Notes: generated from the letters alone by a model not told the origin. 64,000 nucleotides of DNA from an uncultured Bacilli bacterium (GCA_934096705.1 CAKOMR010000004.1:11245-75244); one strand, 5' to 3'. Counted from the stretch's first letter, positions 8,783 to 55,551 are shown. A program made the numbers and translations.

Positions 8783-9640
8783 CTATTTTCTAGGCATATT
8801 TTTTAAATATTCACTTTTTATATAATCATCTGTAATATGAGTATATATTTCCGTAGAGGATAGTGAAGCATGCCCTAAAAGTTCTTGCACACTTTTTAAT
8901 GGGCAACCATTATTGAGCATATGAGTAGCAAATGTATGTCTAAAAGTATGTGGACTTACTTTAGTTTTAATACATGCTTTATCAATAACATTTTTAATTA
9001 TTAACTCTATTCCTCTGATACTTATTTGCTTTCCTTTATTATTTAAAATTAAATATTCACTTTTAAGTTCTCTATTATCTAAATATAATTTTATAGCCTC
9101 ATAAGCATAATCTCCGAAAAAAACAATCCTTTCTTTACTACCCTTTCCAAATACTTTAATGCTTTTATTATTAAAATCTATATCATTTATTTTAATATTT
9201 CTAAGCTCACTTACTCTTATTCCGGTAGCATATAAAAGTTCTATAATCATTTTATTTCTTATAGATAAAATATTATCAATATCAATACTATCCAAAACAA
9301 TTCTTATTTCCTCATAACTTAAAAATGAAGGTAATTTTTTCTCAAGTTTAGGATTACTAACTAACTTAAATATATTTAAACTAATATATCCATTATCAAG
9401 TAAATAACTATAAAAACATCTTAATGAAGAAAGAATTGTACTAATACTTTTATTAGATAGTTTTTGATCATCTAAAAATTTTAAGTAATTAATAACATCA
9501 TTCTTATTTAAAGATAAATAATTAATACCATTATTATCACAATAAGTAATAAAATTTTTAACATGTAACACATATTCTTTTATTGTATAAAAAGAATAAT
9601 TAAGTTCATATTTTAAATATTCATTATATTTTTCTAACAT
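8783..9640 (-). CDS. Tyrosine recombinase, XerC/XerD family
   Basis: ATGIRVSEL (Arg box), HTFRHTFATHML, and LLGHASLSSTEIYTH carrying the catalytic Tyr. 285 aa. Confidence 0.8.
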   Translation of the reverse strand: MLEKYNEYLKYELNYSFYTIKEYVLHVKNFITYCDNNGINYLSLNKNDVINYLKFLDDQKLSNKSISTILSSLRCFYSYLLDNGYISLNIFKLVSNPKLEKKLPSFLSYEEIRIVLDSIDIDNILSIRNKMIIELLYATGIRVSELRNIKINDIDFNNKSIKVFGKGSKERIVFFGDYAYEAIKLYLDNRELKSEYLILNNKGKQISIRGIELIIKNVIDKACIKTKVSPHTFRHTFATHMLNNGCPLKSVQELLGHASLSSTEIYTHITDDYIKSEYLKNMPRK

Positions 9641-9685: not shown

Positions 9686-11860
9686 TTATTCTACTACAAA
9701 TGGTTTTGTATATGACCCATCTCCTACAGTATAGCCAGTTCCAGGTTTCAAGGAAATGGCCGGAAGCACGCCATATTTACTACCGATGCTGGATCTAGAC
9801 TGGGAACCATAGTTGGCTACGACACTACCATAAGCGAGTGAGGCATCGAAACTGTTAGGAGAAGCAAGCCAGTAATTGTTACCGGTATTCAAATAGAAAG
9901 TACTCGAACTGGCACCTCTATATGCTAGCCCTACCTCAGGAGCAGATAATAACCCAACTGGGTAAGTAAGTTTCGCTTTACTATTACTCATGCTAAATCT
10001 ATCTGTCTCATTTGTACATGCTAAACTATAATTGGTATTAAAATTTTCAAAATTTATATAGGTTTCTGTACTTCCCCCGTTTGGATTCCAGCCATTTACT
10101 GATTGATTGCTTATAGTTCTGTCATTACAAAATACGGTATCTTCGAGTTTATCTGTATAACTTGTCATTTTTTCTTTATACCATGAGTCTATATATGTTT
10201 TTATTGTACTATCAGTTTTATTTACATCATCTGCATATAACATTTCATTTAAGGCATCATCCACTGATTTACCACCTGTAAGTGTTATATAATATGCACT
10301 ACCCGAACTTGTAGAATGTACATAATAAAGTGATGTACATGTTGTTCCTGTCGTAAAACATGTATAATGATTACTATTAATTGTGTTATATCCACTTGAC
10401 CATGTTGCTACTGTTTTTGTATCACTTAATGTATATGTTCCATTTGCATACGTAAATGTATTTCCGAATACTATATTTGATTGTGACGACATACTTTTTC
10501 TAGAAAATGTATAAACGGTATTATACATATATCCTACATATGCTGGTGAGACGGAACTACTATTAAACGCTGATGTATTTGTAAGTTGTGAAGCATCATT
10601 AGTATTATCACAAGTTTTGAATGTATTATTTTCATCAATTTTATTAAGATTAAATGTTATAGTACTACCCATCCTATTATTGTATGTAATTTTTATTGTA
10701 TTAGAAGATGTTATAGTACCCAAATTCAACTTACTATCTGCATTACCACTAAATCTGCCTTTATCCGTTCCATCGATAAAAATATTAAAATACGAAGGTG
10801 CTTGGCCTTTACTAGTAATGGAATAATTTAGAATATAAACACCAGTTTCTGAAACATTGAATGAAATAGTAGCTGTAGCAGTGGCATTACTATTCGACCA
10901 AATATTATTTGTACTATCAAATGTAAATGGATTACTTGTATCATTGTTTATATTTGTATATTCACCACTAACTAATGGCGTGTTTTCTAATTCCGGCACA
11001 CCATTATATATCATTTTAATCCCACCAGTGTCAGTAGTTCTTACTATCTTCCAGCAAAATCCTCCGAAAAGTACATTGTTATTTTTAACTGCTCCATTAA
11101 AGTAATATATATTATTAGGATAAGTATTTGGATCACCCTCAGCAGTTGGATCATATAGTTTTACATATGTATCACTATTTTTATACCTATTTTCAATTGT
11201 TTCATATAAAGTATTTACTTTATCACCAAAATCAGTTGATACTCCAGTTCCAATTATAATTGTACTTAAAAGTTTTTTATCCATTGTTGAACCATTTCCA
11301 AGCCATCCTTCATTTTCATCAATCCACACATATAAATAATAACTTTTTGAAGAACTTGCTGGAACGCTTACTTCTCCAAGAAAGTATCCTGAAGTAACCC
11401 CACTATAACTTGTATTTTTACTACTTAATTCTTTTTGAGTTACAGAAGATAAATTAATTTGACTAGAAATATTGGTGCCAGAACTTGGTACTGCTGCGCT
11501 TTGTTCTATTAAAGCATACTTAAGTGCTCTAACTGGCATTGTTGATGATTTTTGTGGGACTAGTATAATAGATATGCTTTGTGCTTTAGTACAATTGTTT
11601 TTAACTACAAAAGGTGTTCTAAAAGTCGTTGCGCTTAAAGCTTTAGCATCAGATACAGGTACAGAGTTAGGAGGTTGAATAGTTATTGAACTACTACTTG
11701 AAAATGAAATGGCTGCACATGATGGAGCGTTAACCATAACCTGTGAGTTCGCATTATTTTGGCTATTAGAAACTTTAAAATAAGCGTAAGAAATAGATAC
11801 AAATGTACAAAGAATTAAAAGAATAACAATTACACGTAAATATTTATTACTATTTTTCAT
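9686..11860 (-). CDS. PF-B: large secreted protein with a SipW-type signal peptide and the shared C-terminal WRIxR...YWLASP...RPAISL module
   Basis: N-terminus MKNSNKYLRVIVILLILCTFVSISYAYFKVS. Core YYFNGAVKNNNVLFGGFCWKIVRTTDTGGIKMIYNG. C-terminus LTYPVGLLSAPEV...YWLASP...LPAISLKPGT..GDGSYTKPFVVE. It is 14 nt downstream of PF-C, so the two are probably co-transcribed. Confidence 0.75.
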   Translation of the reverse strand: MKNSNKYLRVIVILLILCTFVSISYAYFKVSNSQNNANSQVMVNAPSCAAISFSSSSSITIQPPNSVPVSDAKALSATTFRTPFVVKNNCTKAQSISIILVPQKSSTMPVRALKYALIEQSAAVPSSGTNISSQINLSSVTQKELSSKNTSYSGVTSGYFLGEVSVPASSSKSYYLYVWIDENEGWLGNGSTMDKKLLSTIIIGTGVSTDFGDKVNTLYETIENRYKNSDTYVKLYDPTAEGDPNTYPNNIYYFNGAVKNNNVLFGGFCWKIVRTTDTGGIKMIYNGVPELENTPLVSGEYTNINNDTSNPFTFDSTNNIWSNSNATATATISFNVSETGVYILNYSITSKGQAPSYFNIFIDGTDKGRFSGNADSKLNLGTITSSNTIKITYNNRMGSTITFNLNKIDENNTFKTCDNTNDASQLTNTSAFNSSSVSPAYVGYMYNTVYTFSRKSMSSQSNIVFGNTFTYANGTYTLSDTKTVATWSSGYNTINSNHYTCFTTGTTCTSLYYVHSTSSGSAYYITLTGGKSVDDALNEMLYADDVNKTDSTIKTYIDSWYKEKMTSYTDKLEDTVFCNDRTISNQSVNGWNPNGGSTETYINFENFNTNYSLACTNETDRFSMSNSKAKLTYPVGLLSAPEVGLAYRGASSSTFYLNTGNNYWLASPNSFDASLAYGSVVANYGSQSRSSIGSKYGVLPAISLKPGTGYTVGDGSYTKPFVVE

Positions 11861-11874
11861 AATCTATTCCTTTC

Positions 11875-13494
11875 TTAATTAACTGTATATGGATCATTAT
11901 AGGTACCTGTACCAGACAACGATACATTTTTTGCAAGTGATATAACTGGTCTTACGCCATATGGCATAAAAACTGATTTATAATCAATTCCACCATTAGA
12001 ATTTGTAAAGACGAGCATACTTCCTGAAAGATAATTGCATGGTGACACTGTCCAATATATATCTAAAGAATATAAAAAGTAATTTAAGTTATTACCTGTA
12101 CCTGATCCAGCAAAGGCCATTTCATCAACAGTAATTAATCCTATAGGATAAGTAAGTGCCCCATTTCCAATATCAGTGTTAACAGTAAACCTGTCACTAG
12201 CACTTTCACACATAAATGTCGGATTGAAAATACCATTAAGAACAAACCTATTGTAACCACCATAATTTGCGGCATAGGAACTATATGTACCTGATCTATC
12301 ATTGCACACAATTTGGTCCGCTATTTTGCCATTTTCATATAATGTTTTTAAATTTGTACTTCCAGAAAACCAATTTTCAAGTAAAATTTTCATTTTGCTA
12401 TTATACACCGTTCCATTAGAAGTAGAACAAGTTGTCTGTGAAGGATCACATTTTCCATAACCATGTTGAGAACCGTCAATATACTGATATCCAATATTTT
12501 CAGGTTTTGAATTGTCACTTACATAAGTTGGTGATGATATTATTTGATTCCTATATTTTCCTACATATTCCTCATTCTCTGTAGGCACAGATGTTCCAGC
12601 ATATAACATTCTTATACTACCATCACCATTTATTCTTATAATTCGCCAGTACATGTCATTATTACTACTATTTTTTCCAAACTTTACCCAATTATTATTA
12701 ATAGCACCTCTAAAAAAATATGTTTTACCTAAATCATCGTTAAGACTATACATACCCTCATTATCAGTTGCGGCAGCAGATACATCAAAAAGGCTTTTGG
12801 AAGAAACATAACTTTCTCCACCATTTAAAGCAAGTATGTAGTCTTTTGCACTAAGTGCTGACATATCTCCATAATCGCAATTTATATTTTCAATTTTGAT
12901 ATTTCCTTTATATGTTTTTCCAATAATACTATCTTGTGGTTTTTCAATATTATAATATTTTAAAGTAAAATTCCATGTATCAGAAATTGTTGTTTTAGAT
13001 GAAGTTGTTTTAATAAGTCTTGCTCCACCTATAACAATTTTGCTCGAACCATTTAAACTAGTTTCAGATATTTTTCCACCATTTTTAGAACTACCACTTA
13101 TAGTAAGCTCATTATATGTAGTTTGTGATGCCATATAAGCAGTTGAAGGTACATAAACAATATCATAAGTACAATACACTGGAGTAGTACTTTTAGCATC
13201 AAGCGTAACTGTGATATTTCCACCACTATTTGATACAAAAGATGTATAATTGTTTGTGGCGTTTTCAACATCTAAATCTGTTTCATTGATTGTTAAAGAT
13301 ATGCTATTTGCTCCCGTAGAATTAAATGTATAAAAAGTAGTATTTATCTGTGTTATTGCATTTTCTGTGTTATTTATAACAAGTTTTCCAAAATAGGCAT
13401 AAGCAATTCCAGAAATTATTGATAAAACTAAAAGCGTACCAATAACAGTAAGGATTTTAGCTCTATTATTTATTATCTTCTCTTTTATATCCAT
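11875..13494 (-). CDS. PF-C: secreted protein with a SipW-type signal peptide and the shared C-terminal module
   Basis: N-terminus ...ILTVIGTLLVLSIISGIAYAYFGKL. Core TYFFRGAINNNWVKF...YWRIIRINGDGSIRMLYAGT. C-terminus LTYPIGLITVDEMAFAG...YWTVSP...GVRPVISL..GTGTYNDPYTVN. Confidence 0.75.
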   Translation of the reverse strand: MDIKEKIINNRAKILTVIGTLLVLSIISGIAYAYFGKLVINNTENAITQINTTFYTFNSTGANSISLTINETDLDVENATNNYTSFVSNSGGNITVTLDAKSTTPVYCTYDIVYVPSTAYMASQTTYNELTISGSSKNGGKISETSLNGSSKIVIGGARLIKTTSSKTTISDTWNFTLKYYNIEKPQDSIIGKTYKGNIKIENINCDYGDMSALSAKDYILALNGGESYVSSKSLFDVSAAATDNEGMYSLNDDLGKTYFFRGAINNNWVKFGKNSSNNDMYWRIIRINGDGSIRMLYAGTSVPTENEEYVGKYRNQIISSPTYVSDNSKPENIGYQYIDGSQHGYGKCDPSQTTCSTSNGTVYNSKMKILLENWFSGSTNLKTLYENGKIADQIVCNDRSGTYSSYAANYGGYNRFVLNGIFNPTFMCESASDRFTVNTDIGNGALTYPIGLITVDEMAFAGSGTGNNLNYFLYSLDIYWTVSPCNYLSGSMLVFTNSNGGIDYKSVFMPYGVRPVISLAKNVSLSGTGTYNDPYTVN

Positions 13495-13524: not shown

Positions 13525-13554
13525 ATAATACCACATTTAATATCATAATGTCAA
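13525..13554 (-). promoter_or_regulatory. Sigma-A-type promoter of the PF-C/PF-B operon
   Basis: On the minus strand: TTGACA (13549-13554), an 18-nt spacer ending in TGG, then TATTAT (13525-13530). GAAAGG RBS upstream of the ATG at 13494. Confidence 0.5.
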
Positions 13555-20505: not shown

Positions 20506-20535
20506 AATAAAAAAACATCTAACATTTGTTAGATG
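20506..20535 (-). terminator. Intrinsic terminator after PF-E
   Basis: Stem catctaaca/tgttagatg (20516-20535), followed on the minus strand by a T-run (A-run at 20505-20515 on plus). Confidence 0.75.
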
Positions 20536-20542
20536 TAATTTA

Positions 20543-21496
20543 TTAAGGTTGTACGTCTAGTACTTGAGTATATTCAATATTAGCAACAAATTTCTTTTGA
20601 CCATTTTGAATTTGGTTGTGCATTAAATTTCTAAGTGTTACTCTAGCCATATAATATTCATTAATTTTGCCAATTGCTTTAGATGTAGTTATAGATGTTT
20701 CATCTAATAAAACTTTTGATGACTCATTCGGTTCAGTAGTAATATCAAATGAATCTTGAAGAACATAACATCTACTTGTACTATCATCATAATAATCAGT
20801 TACCCAACTACTACCATCTAAATCATCACAAGTACTTTTTGTTGTTGCTGAAGAAACAAGTTTTCTACTAGAGTCATAACATTTTCCAGTATTACAATTG
20901 TCTTTTGTAACAGAAGTATCAGCTTTATAAAAATCTAATACAAGTTCAGCAACTTTTTCTGTAGTCCAAATATAAGTATTACTTGCAGTACAAGAGTATA
21001 AATCAGTATTTGAATTTGGTGTTCCTTTTGGATAACATGCGTAATTAATTCCATCAGTTGTTGCCCAAATATTTCCTTCACCACATTCACTTTCACCAAG
21101 TTCATTTGGAGTAGTTTTTGAATAACATACACCAGATGTATATTCCATATTGTTTTCAGAAACATTTAAAGCAATTTTATACTTTCTTGTAACTTCACTT
21201 TCTGATGATGTTTGATATGTAATACTTCCTTTTGTTTCTGATGAAAGATCTTCTTTATTTTGAGCTTGTTCTTGTCCAAAATTTTCTTCAGTAGCTAAAA
21301 TATCAATTTCACTACCAGCGTCAATTAAAAATAAATCACTTGACACATTTGTTGTAACGTTAATATTACTTTGACCCTTTCCATCAATACGGCTTGCTAA
21401 ATATGCAAATGTTGCTCCTACTACGACAACAAGCATAGTAACAATTGCGATTACTGTAAGAAGAACTACATTATTTTTATTTGATTCCTCGTTCAT
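20543..21496 (-). CDS. PF-E: Cys-rich secreted protein with a SipW-type signal peptide (short family member)
   Basis: N-terminus MNEESNKNNVVLLTVIAIVTMLVVVVGATFAYLASR. Ten Cys in the mature part. It lacks the shared C-terminal module. Confidence 0.65.
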   Translation of the reverse strand: MNEESNKNNVVLLTVIAIVTMLVVVVGATFAYLASRIDGKGQSNINVTTNVSSDLFLIDAGSEIDILATEENFGQEQAQNKEDLSSETKGSITYQTSSESEVTRKYKIALNVSENNMEYTSGVCYSKTTPNELGESECGEGNIWATTDGINYACYPKGTPNSNTDLYSCTASNTYIWTTEKVAELVLDFYKADTSVTKDNCNTGKCYDSSRKLVSSATTKSTCDDLDGSSWVTDYYDDSTSRCYVLQDSFDITTEPNESSKVLLDETSITTSKAIGKINEYYMARVTLRNLMHNQIQNGQKKFVANIEYTQVLDVQP

Positions 21497-26547: not shown

Positions 26548-27573
26548 TTATTCACAAATATTATCATTTATTTTATAGTTTTTATTTACAAAAATAGTTT
26601 TTTCATTTGCACATCTTACGATATTAAAAGAATCAAAATTATAAATTCTATCCATAGATTCATTTTGTTTATATTCTTTTCCACTTACCATATTATCAAT
26701 GCTTTCTCTTTTATCAGATAAAATATAGTTTAAATCGTAAATATTATTGCTATCATATTTATAATAAATATTTTCTATTCCTAAATAATATATATTATTT
26801 TGCATATTACTAAGCTCTTTAGAATTATTATTATTTACCATTATTTCATATTCATCATATAGATGGTTATCAATAATTTTTACATTTGTTAAATAAATGA
26901 TTTCTGTATTTTCTTCGGTAGTAAAAGAACTTACTAAACCAATTACTTCGATTTCATCAAAAATATAGTATTTCGAAGGGTCTACCTTAATATCCTTTAT
27001 AACAACTTTTTTATTATCGATAAAACTTACATAACCATTTATACCAATATTTCCTTCATAAGGACTAATTTCAATAGAATTATCACCAATAATTTTACTT
27101 ATTTTTCCTTTTAAATGAACAAACTTATTTTTTTCTTTACTATATACTAATGAAGCATTGCTTTCTAAAAAATCATTTATGTTTGTAAGAGGAACATCAT
27201 TATTATCACAAGCATAATTTTTTTTATATTTTTTATCTAAAACTAAAGATTTATCGCACTTATAAACTCTATATAAAAGGCTATTATAAGTACTTACTTT
27301 ATCAGAGGATTTATATTCAATTGCCATAACAGGAACCTTTTTAATCGTTATAAAAGAATAATAATCAATCAAGTAAGTAAAAGCAAAAATCATAATTGGG
27401 AAAAGCATAACTTTATATATTTTATTATCCGTATTAGCAATTAAACCTATAGAGGTTAAAATAATTCCAATAAGAACCGCAATAAGTTTAAAGACGGAAT
27501 AGATTTTTATAAAAAATGGTACAAAGATAAAAAGTACTCCCAAAACAATAAAATAAATATTTTCTTTCTTCAT
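26548..27573 (-). CDS. Hypothetical membrane protein (3 N-terminal TM helices plus a Cys-containing extracytoplasmic domain)
   Basis: Long ORF of 341 aa. I recognise no motif. It occupies the slot where mreB usually precedes mreC. Confidence 0.5.
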   Translation of the reverse strand: MKKENIYFIVLGVLFIFVPFFIKIYSVFKLIAVLIGIILTSIGLIANTDNKIYKVMLFPIMIFAFTYLIDYYSFITIKKVPVMAIEYKSSDKVSTYNSLLYRVYKCDKSLVLDKKYKKNYACDNNDVPLTNINDFLESNASLVYSKEKNKFVHLKGKISKIIGDNSIEISPYEGNIGINGYVSFIDNKKVVIKDIKVDPSKYYIFDEIEVIGLVSSFTTEENTEIIYLTNVKIIDNHLYDEYEIMVNNNNSKELSNMQNNIYYLGIENIYYKYDSNNIYDLNYILSDKRESIDNMVSGKEYKQNESMDRIYNFDSFNIVRCANEKTIFVNKNYKINDNICE

Positions 27574-27720: not shown

Positions 27721-29016
27721 ATGTTTAGAGAATTTGATTATGATAATAAACCAGTTGTAGAAATAGTTAATGAAATAATCGAAGATGCTATTAAAAAAGG
27801 TGTTTCCGATATTCATTTCGACCCTGCAGAAAAAGGAATAAATGTAAGAATCAGAATAGATGGTGAACTACATGATTATTGTAAAATACCAGATTCTGTA
27901 AAAAAGAATTTAACAACAAGAGTAAAAATTATCAGTGGTATGAATATTACTGAATCAAGACTTCCCCAAGACGGAGCTATTAAAAGACTTGATGATGGTA
28001 AACAATTAGACCTTCGTGTATCTTCCCTACCTACCATTCATGGTGAAAAAATAGTTATAAGAATACTAGATTATTCAATGAGTTTAGCGGGTCTTGAAAC
28101 TTTAGGCTTCTCTGATGCTAACTATGAAAAAGTTAAAACTGCGCTTACTGCTCCAAACGGTATTATCTTAGTTACTGGTGCTACAGGTTCAGGAAAAAGT
28201 ACAACAGTTTACTCAATGTTGCAACTTCTAAACACTCCCGAAACAAATATTATTACAGTTGAAGACCCCGTAGAAATGAAAATGAAAGGTTTGAACCAAG
28301 TACAAGTTATGAGTGAAATTGGTTTAGACTTTAATACAACACTTCGTAGTATTCTTCGTCAAGACCCAGATACAATAATGATTGGAGAAATTCGTGATGA
28401 TGAAACTGCAAGAATAGCGGTACGTGCCTCTATAACAGGCCACTTAGTACTTTCAACAATCCATACAAATAACTCACTTAATACTATTGAAAGATTACTT
28501 GATATGGATGTAGAAAGATATTTATTAGGTTCTGCTCTTACTGCTATAATTTCTCAAAGACTTGTAAAAAAGTTATGTCCTAAATGTCGTAAATCAAGAC
28601 CTACAACAGCATATGAAAAAAACTTATTTAAAAAGGTTTTAGATATAGATGTTCCTGCAATATATGAAGCTGTCGGCTGTGATGAATGTTTTAATGGATA
28701 TAGAGGAAGAGCCGCTCTTCATGAAGTATTACTTCTTAATCAAGATATAAGAGATGCAATTATTAATAATGTTCGTAAAGATGAACTTAGAAATTTAGTT
28801 TATAATAAAGATAGTACTCGTACCCTTTTAGAAGATGGTCTTATGAAAGTTATTAATGGTACATCCACAATCGAAGAAATAGTTAAAGTTATAGATCTTG
28901 ATACTGACTTTGGTAGTGATGATGTTGAAATAAGAAATGCCTTTTTAGGTAAAGAAATAGAAAAAGATGAAGAAAATCTAAAAAAGGAACAAAGTCAAAT
29001 TATTGACTCACTATAA
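27721..29016 (+). CDS. Type II/IV secretion-family ATPase (PilB/GspE/ComGA-like)
   Basis: Walker A TGATGSGKSTT, Walker B/Asp box DPDTIMIGEIRD, His box GHLVLSTIHTN, and tetra-Cys CPKC...CDEC. 431 aa with no N-terminal GSPII_E_N extension. Confidence 0.85.
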   Translation: MFREFDYDNKPVVEIVNEIIEDAIKKGVSDIHFDPAEKGINVRIRIDGELHDYCKIPDSVKKNLTTRVKIISGMNITESRLPQDGAIKRLDDGKQLDLRVSSLPTIHGEKIVIRILDYSMSLAGLETLGFSDANYEKVKTALTAPNGIILVTGATGSGKSTTVYSMLQLLNTPETNIITVEDPVEMKMKGLNQVQVMSEIGLDFNTTLRSILRQDPDTIMIGEIRDDETARIAVRASITGHLVLSTIHTNNSLNTIERLLDMDVERYLLGSALTAIISQRLVKKLCPKCRKSRPTTAYEKNLFKKVLDIDVPAIYEAVGCDECFNGYRGRAALHEVLLLNQDIRDAIINNVRKDELRNLVYNKDSTRTLLEDGLMKVINGTSTIEEIVKVIDLDTDFGSDDVEIRNAFLGKEIEKDEENLKKEQSQIIDSL

Positions 29017-29049: not shown

Positions 29050-31161
29050 TTATTCTACTACGAATGGATTTGTATATGAACCATCTCCTGAGGCATACAC
29101 AGTGCCAGGTTTCAAGGAAACAGCCGGACGCACGCCCCCCGCATTGTTGACGTCGCCGCTGTACATGCTACCCGCGGTGCTCACGCGCCTGCCGTTGACG
29201 TTGTAGGCGGAGAATCTGTCAGGGGAAGCAAGCCAGTACCAACTGCCGGTATTTAAATAGTATGTCCTCGAACTGGCATTTCTATACGCTAGCCATACCT
29301 CCGGTGCGGATAATAACCCGACTGGGTATGTAAGTTTGGCTTTACTATTACTCACACTAAATTTATCTGTTTCATTTGTACACGCTAAGCTATAATTGGT
29401 ATTATAATTTTTAAAATATAAATAGTTCGACACACTTACTCCATTTGGATTCCAGCCATTTGCTAATTGGTTGATTATAGTTCTATCATTACAAAATACT
29501 GTATCTTCAAGTTTATCTGTATAACTTGTCATTTTGTCTTTATACCATGAATCTATATATGTTTTCATTGTACTATCAGTTTTATTTACATCATCTGCGT
29601 ATAGCATTTCATTTAATGCATCATCTACTGATTTTCCATTTGTTATGGTTATATAATACGGTGTGATACCATCTATATAATATATATAATAAATTGATGT
29701 GCATGTCGTTCCATCGGTAAAACATGTATAATGATGTGTATTTATACTAGTCTTGTTTGAACTAATGTTACCTGCCCATGTATCTGAACTAATTGTTACT
29801 GTATCACTTAATGTATATGTTCCATTTGCATATGTAAATGAATTACCAAATACATAATCTTTGCTAAAACTCGTTCCATCGGTATTTCCACCCGATAATC
29901 TATAATAATAAATTTTTGTCCCACTGTAACCTACTATATAATATGGGCTTGAACATGACGTAGCTGAACTACTATTACATGTATATTTGCCTACCACGTC
30001 ACTTATATTCGAACTTGATACGCTTACTGTCGATTTATTATTAAGTGTATATGTTGAGCCACTATATGTTACTGAATCTCCTACTATCTTTGAGCCACTA
30101 AAACTTATCGAACTTATTAATGATTTTGATGAGTATGTATAAACTGTATTATACATATAGCCTACATATGCTGGTGAATTATATGTGCTATTAAATGCTT
30201 TTGTACTTGCCAGTTGTGAAGCTGTACCACTATTATTACATGAACCATCAGTCTGTACTCCATTATACACCATTTTAACTCCACCAGTGTCTGTTGTTCT
30301 TACTATCTTCCAGCAGAATCCTCCGAAAAGGACATTGTTATTTTCTACCGCTCCATTAAAATAATATACTGGATGTGAATATGAACTTGCATCAGACTCA
30401 CTATATAGTTTTACATATGTATCATTATTTTTATATCTTTGTTCTATTTTACTATAAAGACTTTCTTTTGAATAACTTTCATTATTACATTTAACACTAC
30501 TTTCATCCACATAAAATGTTCCAGAAAATGTTTTACCTGCTAAAGCTGATTGATTTACATCTAAATTATAAAACTTTGTACTTATTCCATATGTTTGTGT
30601 TGTTCCTCTTGTTGAAGCATCAGATATTGTAGCTCCACTTATAATAACTCTTTTAGGTTTTGAGGAATTACTCCATTTTCCTGAAGTAGTTTCATAATTA
30701 AAGTTTTTTTCTTCGACAAAATCACCTTTTGCATCAATACCAAGTACTTGTAAAGTAAGCTCTTTATCGGCTCCTGTAGTTACCGGTGTTGGGCTTATTC
30801 CATAAAAACTTGAGGATGAATCATATTCAAATACGATATCATAAGTACATGTAGTACGAATTTTATCTGAACCTGACGTAAGAGTTACATTTAAATAACT
30901 TCCCTCTCTTGCGGCCACTCCACTTTCTACATACTGAGTCATATTTTTACTTGGAACTGTTAAATTAAAATCTGCTCCATCAGAAACAAATGTGCCTTCA
31001 GCTCCTACATCAATTGTTACATTTACTTTTACCTTACTAGTTACATTTTGATTAAATGAACCAAAATATGCGAATGATGCCCCTATAAATAAAGATAAAA
31101 GAAGTACACTTGCAACTAGGGAAAAAATCTTTGTATTTCTACTTATATTCTTACTATCCAT
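29050..31161 (-). CDS. PF-A: large secreted protein with a SipW-type signal peptide, the shared C-terminal module and a GC-rich hypervariable cassette
   Basis: N-terminus ...IFSLVASVLLLSLFIGASFAYFGSF. Core YYFNGAVENNNVLFGGFCWKIVRTTDTGGVKMVYNG. C-terminus LTYPVGLLSAPEV..YWLASP-[34 aa]-SLKPGT..GDGSYTNPFVVE. Confidence 0.75.
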   Translation of the reverse strand: MDSKNISRNTKIFSLVASVLLLSLFIGASFAYFGSFNQNVTSKVKVNVTIDVGAEGTFVSDGADFNLTVPSKNMTQYVESGVAAREGSYLNVTLTSGSDKIRTTCTYDIVFEYDSSSSFYGISPTPVTTGADKELTLQVLGIDAKGDFVEEKNFNYETTSGKWSNSSKPKRVIISGATISDASTRGTTQTYGISTKFYNLDVNQSALAGKTFSGTFYVDESSVKCNNESYSKESLYSKIEQRYKNNDTYVKLYSESDASSYSHPVYYFNGAVENNNVLFGGFCWKIVRTTDTGGVKMVYNGVQTDGSCNNSGTASQLASTKAFNSTYNSPAYVGYMYNTVYTYSSKSLISSISFSGSKIVGDSVTYSGSTYTLNNKSTVSVSSSNISDVVGKYTCNSSSATSCSSPYYIVGYSGTKIYYYRLSGGNTDGTSFSKDYVFGNSFTYANGTYTLSDTVTISSDTWAGNISSNKTSINTHHYTCFTDGTTCTSIYYIYYIDGITPYYITITNGKSVDDALNEMLYADDVNKTDSTMKTYIDSWYKDKMTSYTDKLEDTVFCNDRTIINQLANGWNPNGVSVSNYLYFKNYNTNYSLACTNETDKFSVSNSKAKLTYPVGLLSAPEVWLAYRNASSRTYYLNTGSWYWLASPDRFSAYNVNGRRVSTAGSMYSGDVNNAGGVRPAVSLKPGTVYASGDGSYTNPFVVE

Positions 31162-39351: not shown

Positions 39352-39879
39352 TTAATCACAATAGTAATTTAAATCACTATACACAGAATATGAATTATCC
39401 TCTGCAAGTAGATTTTTAGTATTATCTTCTTTAACAATACATGTGTATACACGATTATTTTCTCTATAAATTTTTAATTTTAAACTATTTATAATTTTGT
39501 AATCAACATTATTAGTAATAACCATAGTACATAGTCCAGATTCCATAGTACCACCCTCACCACTACATGCAACAGTAGTATAGTCATATTTAGTAGGTTC
39601 AACTTTTTCATCTGAATTTAAATAATTATTTTTTATTAAAAATCCTACAGTTTTTTGAGTATATTGATGCCCGTTTGCGTCAGTAAGAGTAAGCATTTCT
39701 TTATTATCTTCTCCCCACTTAGAACCCGCAGAAATAACTTCAGCAAGTTTATTTTTAAACATATTTTCGTTCATTTTTCTTTTTACTCCAGTTATACTTA
39801 CTGTACCAATCAAGCTTACTACCGCTAAAATAACAATTACTGCTAGTAATTCAGTTAAAGTAAATCCTTTTTTATTCAT
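39352..39879 (-). CDS. Type IV pilin / pseudopilin with a canonical prepilin leader
   Basis: MNKKGFTLTELLAVIVILAVVSLIG is a class III signal (G|FTLxE). AAGGAG RBS before the ATG at 39879. Four Cys in the globular part. Confidence 0.8.
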   Translation of the reverse strand: MNKKGFTLTELLAVIVILAVVSLIGTVSITGVKRKMNENMFKNKLAEVISAGSKWGEDNKEMLTLTDANGHQYTQKTVGFLIKNNYLNSDEKVEPTKYDYTTVACSGEGGTMESGLCTMVITNNVDYKIINSLKLKIYRENNRVYTCIVKEDNTKNLLAEDNSYSVYSDLNYYCD

Positions 39880-43085: not shown

Positions 43086-44057
43086 CTACTTTTCTCCTTC
43101 TTCAAGCATTTTTCTAATATATAGTCCATAACCTGTGTAAGGATTATCCACAATAACATGGGTTAAAACTCCTACAATATTACCATTTTGCAATATTGGA
43201 GACCCACTCATTCCTTGAACTACTCCACCAGTAAGTTCTAAAAGTCTATCATCATTTATTTTAAAAGAAATGTTTTTTACTTCACTATTATCGTTTACTG
43301 ATGTTATTTCAATATTAAATGTTTCAATATTTTCATCACTTAAAACAGTTTTAATTTCTGCACTACCAACTTTAGCTTCACCTATATTTGCTAAAGAAAA
43401 ATTTTCCAAAGTATCATTATAATAACCGAATATTCCATATTTAGTATTTTTAAAAATGCTTCCATAGTTTTGATTATAATCAAATTTTGCCATTTTACTT
43501 CCTGGAACTCCTATTTTACTTTTTTCTATTCCAGTGATTTTATTATTAAAAATTTGACCACTTTTAATTTCAACAATTGAGTTTGAAGTACTTTCAATAA
43601 TTTCATGACCTAAAGCACCAAAAATTTTAGTTTCTGGATCGATATAAGAAAGAGTTCCAATACCCATAATTGAACTTTTTACAAAAAGACCAGTTTTAAT
43701 AACACCATCAATATTAATAAGTTTTAATGATGTATTTTTTTCTATTCCATTCCTTATATATGTGATATTTACGCTATCATTTTTAGAATTTTTTTCAATT
43801 GCTTTGGTAAGTTCATCAACACTATTTACCATAGTATCCTCAACTTTAACTATATAATCACCATTTTGCATATTTGGACTTCCTTTATTAAATTTACCAT
43901 TTACTTTATAAAAACCAATTACCATAACTCCTTTAGAATCCACTTTTATCCCTAACGTTTTGCCTCCTATAATAATTTTCTCAGAATAAGCAAATACGCA
44001 TGAAGGAATAATTAGTAAAGAAATTATTAAAAAAATTATTTTTTTCATATTTACCAC
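43086..44057 (-). CDS. spoIVB: SpoIVB signalling serine peptidase (S55) with a PDZ domain
   Basis: Signal anchor, PDZ region (GDYIVKVEDTMVNSVDEL), and catalytic GMSGSPI. Confidence 0.8.
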   Translation of the reverse strand: MVNMKKIIFLIISLLIIPSCVFAYSEKIIIGGKTLGIKVDSKGVMVIGFYKVNGKFNKGSPNMQNGDYIVKVEDTMVNSVDELTKAIEKNSKNDSVNITYIRNGIEKNTSLKLINIDGVIKTGLFVKSSIMGIGTLSYIDPETKIFGALGHEIIESTSNSIVEIKSGQIFNNKITGIEKSKIGVPGSKMAKFDYNQNYGSIFKNTKYGIFGYYNDTLENFSLANIGEAKVGSAEIKTVLSDENIETFNIEITSVNDNSEVKNISFKINDDRLLELTGGVVQGMSGSPILQNGNIVGVLTHVIVDNPYTGYGLYIRKMLEEGEK

Positions 44058-50002: not shown

Positions 50003-51340
50003 TTAATTAGTTACATAATTAGTTACAACGTATGGATCATTCCAAGTACCAGAACCACTAAACATAACATCGCTATTTAAACTTATTACAGGCCTTACAG
50101 ATAATTCTTGTAACATACTTACACTTGCTATAGCACCTTGCTCATCAATAGTATATACTGAAGCAGAACCATCCATAACACTATACAACATTCCCGTTCC
50201 TAAATAAGTTGCTGTTCCCGTATATAAATAGTAGTCTAAATTGTCTACTCCATAAACACCGCCAGCCATCATTACTTCGTCTAAAGTTAATAATCCAACA
50301 GAATATGTCAAAGCTTGATTACAATCACCTACAACATCAGAAACGCTACAAAACTTATAAGTGTAATTACCATCATCAGAGCATTTATTTATAGGTGAAA
50401 AATTTTCTGCTCTTTTATAACCTGATAAGTATGGATCAGATCTTAAATTAGTGCCTTCATAATAAAAATCAGCACAAAAAATTTGAGGATAAATAACACC
50501 ATCGTTTTCATAGTCTACAAGGTTATCTTCAAACCACTCTTCTAATGCTATTTTCATTTGACTATTAGTTACGTCACAATTAATTTCACTTGGCGGACAA
50601 TAGCCAAATGCAGGTGATCCATTATCAGTCTGATATCCATACTGGTTAGAAGTATGCATAAATAATGAAGCAATAGCAAAAGCATCACCTGAATTCATAT
50701 AAACTCTTTCATTTTCCTCGGGTGCTCTTGTTCCACTATAAAGAAGCCTAATAGTATCATCACCATTTATTCTTACTATTCGCCAGTAAAAGTTTGCAAA
50801 TTTTACCCAATTGTTATCGACTGCTCCTCTAAAATAATATGATGTACCCCTATCGTCATCCGTGATGTATAAGCCTTCATTATCAGAGGCTGTTTCTGAA
50901 AAATTCGGTTCTCCTTTAGCAATGATATTTGCTTTTGCTAAATCAACAGTAGTAGCTCCCTCACCATTTGCAAGAAGAATTCTTTCATATGCTAAAGATG
51001 GTGCTGCAACAGCGATATAATCAAAATATAAAAAGCACTTATCAGTACCTATAAAATTAAAACTAATTGTTCCTGTGGAACTATTATAATCCGTAACTGT
51101 TCCATTATTTTTACAATACGTTTTTTCAGTATTTAAAGAATAACTACCTTTAGGTATATCTTTAGAACTATATTTAGTATAGTCAGTAGCGCCTTCTTCT
51201 TTTACCATAATTGCTATAGAGTCTTCCTTATTTTGCAATGTTTTTTCTTGAAGTTTACTTTCCTTTGGTGTTTTAAGACTAAATAAAACTATCAAGCAAA
51301 ATACTATTCCACTTATTAATAAAAGTAATCTTTTCTTCAT
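50003..51340 (-). CDS. PF-D: family member with a plain signal anchor and the shared C-terminal module
   Basis: SYYFRGAVDNNWVKFANFYWRIVRINGDDTIRLLYSGT; LTYSVGLLTLDEVMMAG; SVRPVISL; GSGTWNDPYVV. I prefer the start at 51340 (GGAGA 8 nt upstream). Confidence 0.75.
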   Translation of the reverse strand: MKKRLLLLISGIVFCLIVLFSLKTPKESKLQEKTLQNKEDSIAIMVKEEGATDYTKYSSKDIPKGSYSLNTEKTYCKNNGTVTDYNSSTGTISFNFIGTDKCFLYFDYIAVAAPSLAYERILLANGEGATTVDLAKANIIAKGEPNFSETASDNEGLYITDDDRGTSYYFRGAVDNNWVKFANFYWRIVRINGDDTIRLLYSGTRAPEENERVYMNSGDAFAIASLFMHTSNQYGYQTDNGSPAFGYCPPSEINCDVTNSQMKIALEEWFEDNLVDYENDGVIYPQIFCADFYYEGTNLRSDPYLSGYKRAENFSPINKCSDDGNYTYKFCSVSDVVGDCNQALTYSVGLLTLDEVMMAGGVYGVDNLDYYLYTGTATYLGTGMLYSVMDGSASVYTIDEQGAIASVSMLQELSVRPVISLNSDVMFSGSGTWNDPYVVTNYVTN

Positions 51341-51450
51341 AATCATTATCTCCTATAAAGGTAAGTTTTATAACCTCTTATTATTACATAACAATTTTAG
51401 CATATTTTATTTAAAATTTATATAATATTTTTTGAAAAAATAAAAAAACG

Positions 51451-52891: not shown

Positions 52892-55060
52892 TCATAGTCT
52901 AATTGGATTAAATGTTATTTCAATATTTACCCTATTATTTAAAATATAACTATTATCAATATCCCCTAGTACTTCATATAAATTATTTTCTTTTGTATAT
53001 TTAATTATAATTTGAAAATGATATACATTGTTTATTTTAAATACTGCTGCAGGTGTTGGACCATATATAATCGTATCAACAAGCTTATCTTTTAAAGTCT
53101 TTTTTATTTTATTTGCATTATCGCTTGTTTCTTTATAATCTTTACCTATGACTTTTATTAAAGCTATATACGAATAAGGTGGATAAAATAAAACTTTACG
53201 GATACCTAGTTCATATTTAAAAAATCCTTCATAATCATTATTTTTGACAAAATTCAGTACTTTGTTATCTGGATTATAAGTCTGAAGAATTACTTCACCT
53301 TTTAAATTTTTTCTGCCAGCCCTACCAGATGTTTGATATAAAAGTGAAAACGTTTTCTCATTAGCCCTAAAGTCTGGCATATTTAATGATGTATCAGCAT
53401 TTATTACTCCTACCAAAGATACTAAAGGAAAATCAAGACCTTTACTAATCATTTGAGTACCAAGTAAAATATCATATTTATGAAGAGCAAAATCATCAAT
53501 AATTTTTTGATAACTGCCTTTTTTAGATGTTGTATCTTGATCCATTCTTATTACTTTGGCATCTGGAAATAATTTATTTAATTCTTCTTCAACTTTTTGA
53601 GTACCAAGCCCTAAAAAATTCAAAGAATTTTCATGACATTCTGAGCACTCTAAAGGTTTTTTTATAACATACGAACAATAGTGACATCTTAAACTATCAC
53701 TTGTTTTATGATATGTCAAAGTAATATCACAGTTCGGACATTTATATGTATAGCCACAGTTAGAACAAGTAATAAATGTTGAAAATCCCCTTCGATTTAA
53801 AAGTAAAATAATTTGCTCTTTTTTATTTAATCTTTCGATAATTTTCTCTTTTAGTATGTTTGAAATTATTCCATTATGATTGTTTTTCATATCTACCAAA
53901 ATAGTTTCAGGAAGATTTGCTCCACTAGCTCTTTTCTTTAATGGTACTAAAGTATACACATTTTTCAATGTTCTTGCTTTTGACTCAAGGGATGGAGTCG
54001 CACTTGCAAGTACTAAAGGAATATTATTAAGTTTAGCTCGATATTTAGCGATTTCAATTGCATCATATCTTGGAGTAGTATCTTGTTTATAACTTTCAGA
54101 GTGTTCTTCATCAATTATTATTAAACCCAAATTTTTAAATGGAACAAAAATGCTTGATCTAGTTCCCACTACTATTGATACCTTTCCTTCATATATTTTC
54201 ATATACTCATCATATTTTTCACCCGTAGAAAGACCTGAATGAAAAATTGCTACTTTACTACCAAATCTTTTATAAAATCTTTGTACAGTTTGTGTAGTTA
54301 AACAAATTTCCGGAACTAACACAATAACTGTCTTGTTCATAAGTAAAACTTTATCGATTAATGACATATAAACTTCTGTTTTGCCAGATCCAGTTACACC
54401 TTCAAGTAAAAAAACTTTATATTTATCTAAATCTTTTGCTATTACTTCATAAGCATTTGTTTGTTCTTCATTTAAAACTATTTTATTTTCTACATTATCA
54501 CTTACATTTATTCGATTTTTTATTTCTTTAGTTTCTTTTACTATACCTTTTTGTAATAAAACTTTTAATGAAGATGCTGAAAGTTCACTTTTTTTTATTT
54601 TTCCTTTAGCAATAAGACTATCTATAATACGAATTTGAGCATGGGCTTTACTATTGTTAATTATATATTTACCAGCATCATTTATATTTACATTCAACCA
54701 AATATAGGTTTCATATTTATGAAAGTCTTTCATTTCATTTTTAATTTTAAGTGCTGGAGGAAGGCATACCTCAAAAGCACTTATTAATGGACATAAAGTA
54801 GTTTTTTTTAGATAATATGCAAGATGCATTTGTTCACTATTAATGATAAATGATTCATCAATATTATATATTTCCTTCATTTCAAAATCTTTTTTTTCAT
54901 TATCTAATTTAATTATTATTCCCGTGATTACATCATTATTAAAAGGAACAACTACTTTCATACCAACACTAACTTTTTCCTCAAAATTTTTAGGAACTTT
55001 ATAAGTAAACACTTTATCTAATGATTTAACAGGATATTTGACTATAACTTGTGCATTCAT
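52892..55060 (-). CDS. priA: Primosomal replication-restart helicase PriA
   Basis: GVTGSGKTEVY, IIDEEH, and a Cys-rich zinc-binding insert CSNCGYTYKCPNCDITLTYH...CHYC. Confidence 0.9.
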   Translation of the reverse strand: MNAQVIVKYPVKSLDKVFTYKVPKNFEEKVSVGMKVVVPFNNDVITGIIIKLDNEKKDFEMKEIYNIDESFIINSEQMHLAYYLKKTTLCPLISAFEVCLPPALKIKNEMKDFHKYETYIWLNVNINDAGKYIINNSKAHAQIRIIDSLIAKGKIKKSELSASSLKVLLQKGIVKETKEIKNRINVSDNVENKIVLNEEQTNAYEVIAKDLDKYKVFLLEGVTGSGKTEVYMSLIDKVLLMNKTVIVLVPEICLTTQTVQRFYKRFGSKVAIFHSGLSTGEKYDEYMKIYEGKVSIVVGTRSSIFVPFKNLGLIIIDEEHSESYKQDTTPRYDAIEIAKYRAKLNNIPLVLASATPSLESKARTLKNVYTLVPLKKRASGANLPETILVDMKNNHNGIISNILKEKIIERLNKKEQIILLLNRRGFSTFITCSNCGYTYKCPNCDITLTYHKTSDSLRCHYCSYVIKKPLECSECHENSLNFLGLGTQKVEEELNKLFPDAKVIRMDQDTTSKKGSYQKIIDDFALHKYDILLGTQMISKGLDFPLVSLVGVINADTSLNMPDFRANEKTFSLLYQTSGRAGRKNLKGEVILQTYNPDNKVLNFVKNNDYEGFFKYELGIRKVLFYPPYSYIALIKVIGKDYKETSDNANKIKKTLKDKLVDTIIYGPTPAAVFKINNVYHFQIIIKYTKENNLYEVLGDIDNSYILNNRVNIEITFNPIRL

Positions 55061-55551
55061 TTTCTTTTTAACCTTTCATGAATTAGAAATATAAGTATGG
55101 ATAAAATGGCAAGCAAAGCAAAGATGTAAATATAATTTTTATATAAAAATGAATAAAATGTTCCAAAGCCATTTATAACAAGTATTACTTTTCCATAAAT
55201 ATTACTTATGTGTATTTGTTCCCCGTCATTAAATCTATTACTATCACCCTTAGTCTTATAAAAATCATCATATGAATCAATAACTCTATGAGTATTTACA
55301 TAATTTTCATTAGTTTTAAAACTAATTACATCGTTAGGAACATAATTATCCTTTTTCTTTACAATTACTAAATCGCCAACATTAATATAGGGCATCATAC
55401 TACTCCCTGTATTAATAAAACTTGTATAACCAAATATACAAGGAACTTTCTTTAGTATAATTTTTTGATAACAATAAGAAAAAGTTATATACATAATAAA
55501 TATTATAAAAATAGATAATAAACCTAAAATTATTTTTCTTAAAATCTTCAT
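55057..55551 (-). CDS. sipW: Signal peptidase I, archaeal/ER type (S26B, SipW-like)
   Basis: N-terminal TM helix, catalytic TGSSMMP, GDLVIVKK, VNTHRVI (Ser-His type), KGDSNRFND, and a second C-terminal TM helix. The stop overlaps the priA start (ATGA). Confidence 0.75.
   Translation of the reverse strand: MKILRKIILGLLSIFIIFIMYITFSYCYQKIILKKVPCIFGYTSFINTGSSMMPYINVGDLVIVKKKDNYVPNDVISFKTNENYVNTHRVIDSYDDFYKTKGDSNRFNDGEQIHISNIYGKVILVINGFGTFYSFLYKNYIYIFALLAILSILIFLIHERLKRK

Follow-up and report, generated by a model that had tools for sequence, protein, structure and literature searches.

The closest functional analogues of the proteins considered here are the SipW-dependent proteins TasA, CalY and BsaA. 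SipW cleaves TasA, while the tryptophan at P2 and the aromatic residue at P2' make TasA refractory to Escherichia coli LepB (PMC10269814). The nearest analogue is BsaC of Clostridium perfringens (CPE0517), a 70-kDa protein with a von Willebrand factor A (vWA) domain, which is encoded in the sipW-bsaA-bsaB-bsaC operon and whose predicted signal is thought to be processed by SipW (bioRxiv 10.1101/2024.11.04.621531); the notion that SipW processes a protein with an adhesive domain is thus not without precedent. A further point of reference is DUF6273, which is reported to have a C-type-lectin-like fold and to be used as a diversified receptor-binding domain (PMC10743442); it is represented by the phage 'tentaclin', by Mtd-like targets of diversity-generating retroelements (DGRs) and by the N-terminal domain of the Thomasclavelia ramosa IgA protease. 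Here we describe five genes, PF-A to PF-E, in a stretch of 64,000 nucleotides from an uncultured Bacilli bacterium (GCA_934096705.1, CAKOMR010000004.1:11245-75244; hereafter the window). We assign a probability of about 0.55 to the reading that their products are paralogous binding proteins which are exported by Sec, processed by a SipW-type signal peptidase and equipped with a ligand-binding head in a shared C-terminal module. An earlier note on this DNA had called such a family a system not seen described, a claim that BsaC, as a published analogue, makes too strong.

The PF proteins have the same signal layout and signal length as TasA, CalY and BsaA, a beta-sandwich follows the signal, and an S26B peptidase is encoded in the genome. 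The cleavage regions of TasA (T-W-A↓A-F) and CalY (T-F-A↓Y-F) are nearly identical to that of the PF proteins, with the common form G-x-[S/T]-[F/Y/W]-A-[Y/A]-F. Unlike TasA and CalY, however, the PF proteins lack the S/N-D...AGTLDL segment after the motif, and, in contrast to all three analogues, their genes are dispersed and lie outside a sipW operon, and the proteins are 2-3 times larger and end in a DUF6273-like head. BsaC resembles the PF proteins in being a large secreted protein with an interaction domain, and C. perfringens also has type IV pilus genes; its head, however, is a vWA domain rather than a DUF6273-like module, and bsaC shares an operon with sipW whereas the PF genes do not. 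Secretion of BsaC depends on the pilin PilA3, while the adjacency of PF-A to a PilB-type ATPase gene is not conserved at other loci of the family. With respect to DUF6273 proteins, the C-terminal third of the PF module matches the Pfam model, the whole module superposes on phage models and a variable surface patch is present, but the PF module comprises about 300 residues against 172 model positions, is encoded chromosomally in signal-bearing proteins and is not accompanied by a DGR in the window. The DUF1566/Lcl C-terminal domain, LOX-1 and LLT1 show a faint Foldseek likeness to the PF module, which is not significant and has no counterpart at the sequence level; this faint likeness to C-type-lectin-like domains (CTLDs) is in line with the C-lectin assignment published for DUF6273. 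What is new is a divergent signal variant, missed by the curated model, joined to a DUF6273-like head, together with the dispersed, multi-copy, housekeeping-embedded organisation of the genes and the very large number of family members in uncultured gut Bacilli.

The C-terminal module and its relatives

The five open reading frames (ORFs) all lie on the minus strand (Table 1). They were present where the earlier note had placed them, except that PF-D ends at 51346 rather than 51340, its first ATG lying 6 nt further up. Full-length scans of the five proteins against Pfam and NCBIfam gave almost no matches. In a five-way alignment (A1), a motif-bearing N terminus was common to PF-A, PF-B, PF-C and PF-E, and a C-terminal module of about 300 residues was common to PF-A to PF-D and missing from PF-E, in agreement with the earlier description. 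The conserved segments of the module are YYF.GAV.NN.V.F, W[RK]I[VI]R, C.DR, LTYP[VI]GL, YW..SP, VRP.[IV]SL and G.G[ST][YW]..P[FY].V. The AlphaFold2 (AF2) model of PF-C, built from a 64-sequence alignment, had a predicted local distance difference test score (pLDDT) of 85.4 and a predicted template modelling score (pTM) of 0.80, and consisted of a helix (residues 3-35), a beta-sandwich and the C-terminal module.

Table 1. Features of the five PF loci, of other genes in the window and of related loci (positions in the 64,000-nt window, except in the last row)
Feature	Position	Strand	Description and basis
PF-C	11875..13494	-	539 aa; signal peptide, beta-sandwich N-domain, C-terminal DUF6273-like module; first gene of the PF-C/PF-B pair
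PF-C predicted signal peptide	13396..13494	-	aa 1-33, ...SGIAYA↓YF; inferred cleavage site
PF-C variable beta-sandwich N-domain	12871..13380	-	aa 39-208; AF2
PF-C C-terminal module, DUF6273-related	11878..12762	-	aa 245-539; AF2 and BFVD Foldseek
PF-B	9686..11860	-	724 aa; predicted signal aa 1-26 (...SISYA↓YF, 11783-11860); C-module with insert, ~aa 216-724
PF-A	29050..31161	-	703 aa; predicted signal aa 1-31 (...GASFA↓YF, 31069-31161); C-module with insert, ~aa 231-703
PF-E	20543..21496	-	317 aa; predicted signal aa 1-31 (...GATFA↓YL, 21404-21496); without C-module
PF-D	50003..51346	-	447 aa; plain N-terminal transmembrane segment without AYF motif; short 'AIMVKEEGATDY' N-domain; C-module ~aa 116-447
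Hypervariable 29-aa patch, between YWLASP and VRP	PF-A 29134..29220 (aa 648-676); PF-B 9770-9856	-	pairwise alignment
SipW/archaeal-type (S26B) signal peptidase I	55057..55551	-	164 aa; GSSMMP, THRV and KGDSN motifs (Ser, His, Asp); C-terminal transmembrane segment
Promoter-like site upstream of PF-C	13525..13554	-	TTGACA, 18-nt spacer, TATTAT after TG; 11/12 matches; consensus match only
PF-E promoter-like site	21552-21524	-	sequence
PF-E terminator-like hairpin and T-run	20515..20536	-	directly after stop; sequence
XerC/D-like tyrosine recombinase	8783-9640	-	Phage_integrase and SAM-like domains; directly downstream of PF-B
Orphan PilB/GspE-type ATPase	27721-29016	+	PF00437, E 1.8e-124; convergent with PF-A
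Type IV prepilin	39352-39879	-	MNKKGFTLTELL..., TIGR02532 31.4 bits; alone between engB and der
SipW-like loci of sister genomes	L083 8001-12831; L085 6887-9063 and 15055-16116; L087 2240-7786		

The Pfam model of DUF6273 (PF19789) scored PF-A at 23.1 bits against a gathering threshold of 23.5 (E 7.7e-5; model positions 118-171 of 172), and precomputed tables list PF19789 for PF-A; no match to the model was detected in PF-B, PF-C or PF-D. Four of 64 family members matched at E <= 0.01, the best at E 1.3e-7. An AF2 model of the PF-C module by itself had a pLDDT of 92.1 and a pTM of 0.92. In a Foldseek comparison with the predicted viral structures of BFVD the first-ranked match was a DUF6273 protein (E 5.6e-5), while another DUF6273 protein of that set was matched with a probability of 1.00 and a TMt of 0.62 over 303 columns. 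By this comparison with BFVD models the module shares the DUF6273 fold. From these scores and structural matches we conclude that the module is a distant relative of DUF6273; the resemblance that the earlier note had pointed out was correct, and it is a distant one. Against the PDB, the module-only model gave no significant match (best E 0.57); the solved CTLDs of LOX-1, LLT1 and Lcl-CTD appeared at nonsignificant E values of 1.8-3.7 (8q4e, TMt 0.30; 1yxj, TMt 0.27-0.34), and the family alignment, used as a profile against PDB sequences, returned 0 matches.

The module is found behind several kinds of N terminus. In other members of the family it follows type IV pilin-like N termini (P0395, P0376, P0386, P0339 and P0374; KGFTLVEIL..., KGMTIVELI..., KGFISTAALY...), an arrangement like that of tip adhesins, and a recurrent class carries a transmembrane segment ending in 'GYAxLxxxLxIxG' (P0281, P0282, P0300, P0307, P0318, P0327, P0329, P0347 and others); the plain transmembrane N terminus of the PF-D type also occurs among the family representatives. 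Giant members also exist, the largest of 4,905 aa, and as many as 21 stretches are matched in one protein. Since the same module is joined to such varied N termini and is matched repeatedly in the giants, it would fit a binding head that is independent of the way in which it is displayed.

A patch of 29 residues within the module is hypervariable: it is almost wholly different in PF-A and PF-B, whereas the surrounding region of about 250 aa is about 85% identical as judged by eye, and DNA repeats at 76-90% identity flank it on both sides. The patch lies where the variable regions of DGRs occur in targets with a C-lectin fold.

The family is large. An exhaustive profile search yielded 10,055 clusters (50% identity), of which 4,295 had E <= 1e-30. 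With PF-A as query there were 1,973 homologous matches and with PF-C 2,780, nearly all from metagenome assemblies, and none of the matches listed for these two proteins bore an informative protein name. Among GTDB species representatives the family was present in gut metagenome-assembled genomes (MAGs) named 'uncultured Bacilli', 'uncultured Tenericutes', 'Mycoplasma sp. CAG:776', 'Mollicutes bacterium' and 'Candidatus Caccenecus', which come from human, rabbit, goat, mouse and chicken hosts and hold several copies per genome. The window's own contigs are from human gut samples, Hadza samples among them, and five family genes lie within its 64 kb.

The N-terminal motif and a candidate peptidase

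PF-A, PF-B, PF-C and PF-E begin with a charged n-region followed by 17-22 hydrophobic residues and then by the motif [G/S]-x-[S/T/A]-[F/Y]-A-[Y/F]-[F/L], which reads SISYAYF in PF-B, GIAYAYF in PF-C, GASFAYF in PF-A and GATFAYL in PF-E; PF-D has a plain transmembrane segment without the motif. This is the arrangement that had been reported for four of the N termini and implied for the fifth. The motif is retained in 166 of 240 database homologues. We also examined 882 kb of related MAG loci, taken from other MAGs as regions reaching up to 10 kb to either side of a match. Among 168 signal-like ORFs in this DNA, 39 carried the motif, and 34 of the 39 were family proteins (32 with the C-terminal module), whereas only 5 of the 91 signal-like ORFs outside the family carried it, most of the five being small paralogues that consist of the N-domain alone. 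The same MAGs also contain ordinary AXA and lipoprotein signals, and the plain AXA sites are without aromatic residues at P2, P1' and P2'. Eighteen proteins with the module and the motif have N-domains without BLAST similarity to those of the window. Because the motif is kept while the N-domains diverge beyond recognition, it does not belong to any conserved fold; judged from sequence, it is a feature of the signal and not of the domain that follows. In 118 unique motif sites P3 was Ser, Thr or Ala in 94% and P1 was Ala in 92%, P5 was Gly in 44% and Ser in a further 19%, and the median signal length was 28; P3 and P5 lay outside the pattern with which the sites had been searched. The surroundings of the motif thus look like a cleavage region, in which a small P3 is followed by an aromatic P2, by Ala and by aromatic residues at P1' and P2'. 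Type IV pilin identity of the PF N termini was considered and rejected, as none of the five proteins has the class III motif G↓F-T-L-x-E.

A motif scan, followed by scoring with hidden Markov models (HMMs), revealed a signal peptidase gene in the window. The archaeal/SipW-type model TIGR02228 scored the product at 66.6 bits (cutoff 51.85), and the bacterial-type model TIGR02227 at 22.1 (cutoff 47). The gene overlaps the start of priA by 4 nt, and the pairing with priA is kept in relatives (67% identity). The enzyme is a candidate for processing of PF-A, PF-B, PF-C and PF-E. The nearest motif-bearing gene, PF-A, is about 24 kb away from it, while PF-D, which lacks the motif, is at a distance of 3.7 kb. 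Public gene calls for the peptidase vary in their start and give proteins of 112, 145 or 164 aa. Because the N-terminal transmembrane segment is lost from the shorter calls, many MAG annotations probably place the start of the gene wrongly.

More distant SipW-like genes (34-41% identity) occur in sister MAGs of 26-27% GC, in many cases two at one locus, where they head operons encoding four to six small (150-230 aa) secreted proteins without Pfam matches, the N termini of which end in [ST]Y[AS]KY. Near these operons a 353-aa protein (...GTSTYAWFTA...) passes TIGR04088, the curated model of SipW signals (34 positions, cutoff 19 bits), which scored the controls TasA and CalY at 40.1 and 52.0 bits. 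The sister loci look like an undescribed matrix or pilus locus of the TasA/BsaA type. They also hold larger Flg_new/DUF285 or PKD-like proteins, and one of the small operon proteins weakly matches the 'Pam pilus' pilin model of the Candidate Phyla Radiation (CPR; E 0.016).

The sequence of events that we propose for the PF proteins would begin with insertion by Sec, after which the signal would be cut behind the conserved Ala (S-F-A↓Y-F). With its aromatic P2 and P2' residues, the signal would be poorly accepted by a bacterial-type signal peptidase, and in this proposal it would therefore be the SipW/archaeal-type enzyme of the window that processes it, as for TasA, CalY and BsaA. The protein, released or associated with the surface, would bind its ligand through the C-terminal module, as an adhesin or with a lectin-like head. 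Expansion of paralogues and the variable patch would diversify specificity, and paralogues of the PF-D type would present the same head on an uncleaved transmembrane anchor. If this model is true, SipW-type processing is not confined to a few biofilm-matrix proteins but reaches a large class of modular adhesins, TIGR04088 and the -3/-1 rule are both incomplete descriptors of the signal class, and the DUF6273-like module, for which there is no solved structure, is a candidate head for binding to the host or to glycans in uncultured low-GC gut Bacilli, organisms whose surface biology is almost uncharted.

Weighing SipW-type processing against other readings

Several observations weigh against SipW-type processing and a lectin-like head. 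TIGR04088 gave PF-A 11.1 bits (E 0.35, profile positions 2-19 only) and did not match PF-B, PF-C or PF-E, and ten divergent family N termini from other MAGs also fell below its cutoff (best 15.5 bits); by this curated test the window proteins are thus not members of the class. None of the five proteins matched Peptidase_M73/TasA, NF046066 or TIGR04090 (BsaA) in the Pfam and NCBIfam scans. An HMM of the window-type N-domain detected neither PF-E nor the divergent N-domains, and it also missed the small proteins of the sipW operons, so that no link by homology could be drawn between the PF proteins and those operons. The sequence S-x-A↓Y fits ordinary signal peptidase I by the -3/-1 rule as well, and AF2 draws residues 3-35 of PF-C as one continuous helix, which would equally fit an uncleaved anchor. 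A regular-expression search found no S26 peptidase within about 6 kb of 79 other family loci in other MAGs, and in the window the SipW-type gene is paired with priA and not with a PF gene, so that there is no operon linkage of the tapA-sipW-tasA kind; the enzyme could be the genome's general signal peptidase. Finally, the module has no significant neighbour in the PDB, which makes the term 'lectin-like' indirect. Assignment to the SipW signal class, as put forward in the earlier note, therefore stands in part. The window proteins match neither TIGR04088 nor Peptidase_M73/TasA; in its favour are the SipW-type peptidase in the window, the aromatic residues at P2 and P2', and the family representative P0291 (900 aa, ...IGGTYAWFSSRIEGNG...), which passes TIGR04088 at 23.0 bits. 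Residues 1-85 of P0291 weakly match TasA (E 2.3e-5, 24 bits against a cutoff of 450) and BsaA (E 9e-4, 19 bits against 60), and the N-terminal region of PF-E aligns to the P0291 class by hhalign with a probability of 72% (E 3.4e-5).

Some of these observations would be explained if the N terminus were an uncleaved type II membrane anchor that tethers a stalk and a lectin-like head, with the F/Y-A-Y/F-F residues forming an aromatic belt at the membrane-water interface. The PF proteins carry no LPXTG motif, cell-wall-binding domain or C-terminal transmembrane anchor in their sequences, and since no other anchor is present cleavage would leave them unattached. Paralogues of the PF-D type clearly bear the same head on a plain transmembrane anchor, and the single AF2 helix, which includes the motif, and the failure of the window proteins to match TIGR04088 are also as expected for an anchor. 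An interfacial belt, however, needs none of the preferences for small residues at P3, Ala at P1 and Gly or Ser at P5, which are the signature of a peptidase c-region; moreover, the hydrophobic stretch and the overall length are those of the TasA and CalY signals, and both the TIGR04088 score of P0291 and the presence of a SipW-type peptidase in the window count against anchoring. We regard permanent anchoring as unlikely, though it deserves to be taken seriously; were it correct, the family would still be the main candidate for the adhesin repertoire of these bacteria. A quite improbable reading, in our judgement, is that of ordinary secretion, in which a general type I signal peptidase cuts the signal (perhaps the SipW-type enzyme itself, as the housekeeping peptidase of a reduced genome), the aromatic residues are simply part of the first strand in the mature N-domain and no dedicated signal class exists. 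The S/T/A-x-A sequence conforms to the -3/-1 rule, the SipW-type gene and priA are translationally coupled in a housekeeping context that is conserved, and the signal of a SpoIVB-type S55 peptidase encoded in the window likewise ends in ...SCVFA↓YSE. No bacterial-type signal peptidase I was seen in about 0.9 Mb of related DNA, but a sample of that size, drawn from many genomes, does not suffice to infer the absence of a LepB-type enzyme. The persistence of the motif through divergence of the N-domain places it outside any conserved fold, contrary to what a first strand would require, and the other secreted proteins of the lineage have plain AXA sites that lack the aromatic residues.

A different origin for the PF proteins would be as receptor-binding proteins derived from phage or diversified by a DGR, their heads being DGR targets or remnants of prophage tail fibres. 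In the receptor-binding proteins of phages DUF6273 is known to be targeted by DGRs (PMC10743442), the best Foldseek matches in BFVD are phage DUF6273 proteins, and the position of the hypervariable patch is that of the variable region in C-lectin-fold targets. Nevertheless, the window contains no non-coding copy resembling a template repeat, neither a reverse transcriptase nor phage genes came to notice in the ORFs of the window that were examined, all PF loci lie between housekeeping genes and have a host-like composition, and the PF N termini are signal peptides and transmembrane anchors, not of the tail-fibre type. A template repeat/variable region pair or other DGR signature in the window was looked for and rejected, the only repeats found being the paralogous coding repeats of PF-A and PF-B. 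We consider this origin highly improbable.

The earlier note had also suggested that the proteins might form fibres, for which we found no support. The N-domain of PF-C is a generic beta-sandwich in the AF2 model, and the preceding 15 residues or so are of low confidence (pLDDT 51-61). Foldseek gave the N-domain weak matches only, to the VP2 jelly roll of infectious bursal disease virus (6e-4), FimG (about 1e-3), Bd1399 and 7ueg, a TasA-like archaeal bundling pilus (0.015); TasA was not in the top 50 PDB matches of the full-length PF-C model, and a PDB profile search with an alignment of the TasA-like N-terminal class (A4) produced chance matches only. In other MAGs small paralogues consisting of the N-domain alone (170-230 aa) adjoin large family genes, and small beside large paralogues are compatible with a shaft-plus-adhesin arrangement. 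One might envisage that the AYF-class N-module is a pilin-like, donor-strand-exchanging unit of a SipW-dependent fibre of the TasA/BsaA type, with small paralogues like PF-E forming the shaft and large ones decorating or tipping it with interchangeable lectin-like heads; we hold this to be improbable. If it were true, uncultured gut Bacilli would possess a modular adhesive pilus, to which the type IV pilin fusions of this head form a parallel, and it would be the first fibre of the TasA type to have variable receptor-binding domains built in.

Genomic setting of the PF loci

The GC content of the window is about 26% throughout. The PF loci are flanked by dnaJ and a XerC/D-like recombinase gene, by a DUF192-family gene (with obg beyond it) and hrcA, by ddl and the PilB-type ATPase gene, and by mscL and a YgjP-like gene, bearing out the earlier remark that the four loci sit between housekeeping genes. 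PF-B begins 14 nt downstream of PF-C, and from this spacing the two look like an operon. That each locus has its own promoter and terminator proved only partly true, because PF-A has a weak promoter-like site only and none was detected for PF-D. PF-E has both elements and the PF-C/PF-B pair has a strong promoter-like site, whereas no terminator was found at PF-A and neither a promoter nor a terminator was detected at PF-D. The XerC/D-like recombinase beside PF-B is probably a housekeeping Xer rather than the integrase of a mobile element.

The prepilin gene stands alone and the PilB/GspE-type ATPase gene is an orphan, so that genes of a type IV pilus or competence pseudopilus lie scattered singly among the housekeeping genes. 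A conserved link between the PF family and type IV pilus genes was rejected, since no PilB-type ATPase gene was near the 79 other family loci. Divergent from the ATPase gene, a 341-aa protein (26548-27573, minus strand) with an N-terminal multi-transmembrane region and a large Asn/Lys-rich domain is encoded, for which there was no match in Pfam or NCBIfam. The SpoIVB-type S55 peptidase (43086-44057, minus strand; PF05580, E 2e-63) has a PDZ domain, and the window also encodes MreC, Ddl, a Mur ligase and, at the position of mreD, a 111-aa ORF without a family match. The S55 peptidase, MreC, Ddl and the Mur ligase indicate that this 'Tenericutes-like' organism, with its small genome and very low GC content, is walled and may form spores.

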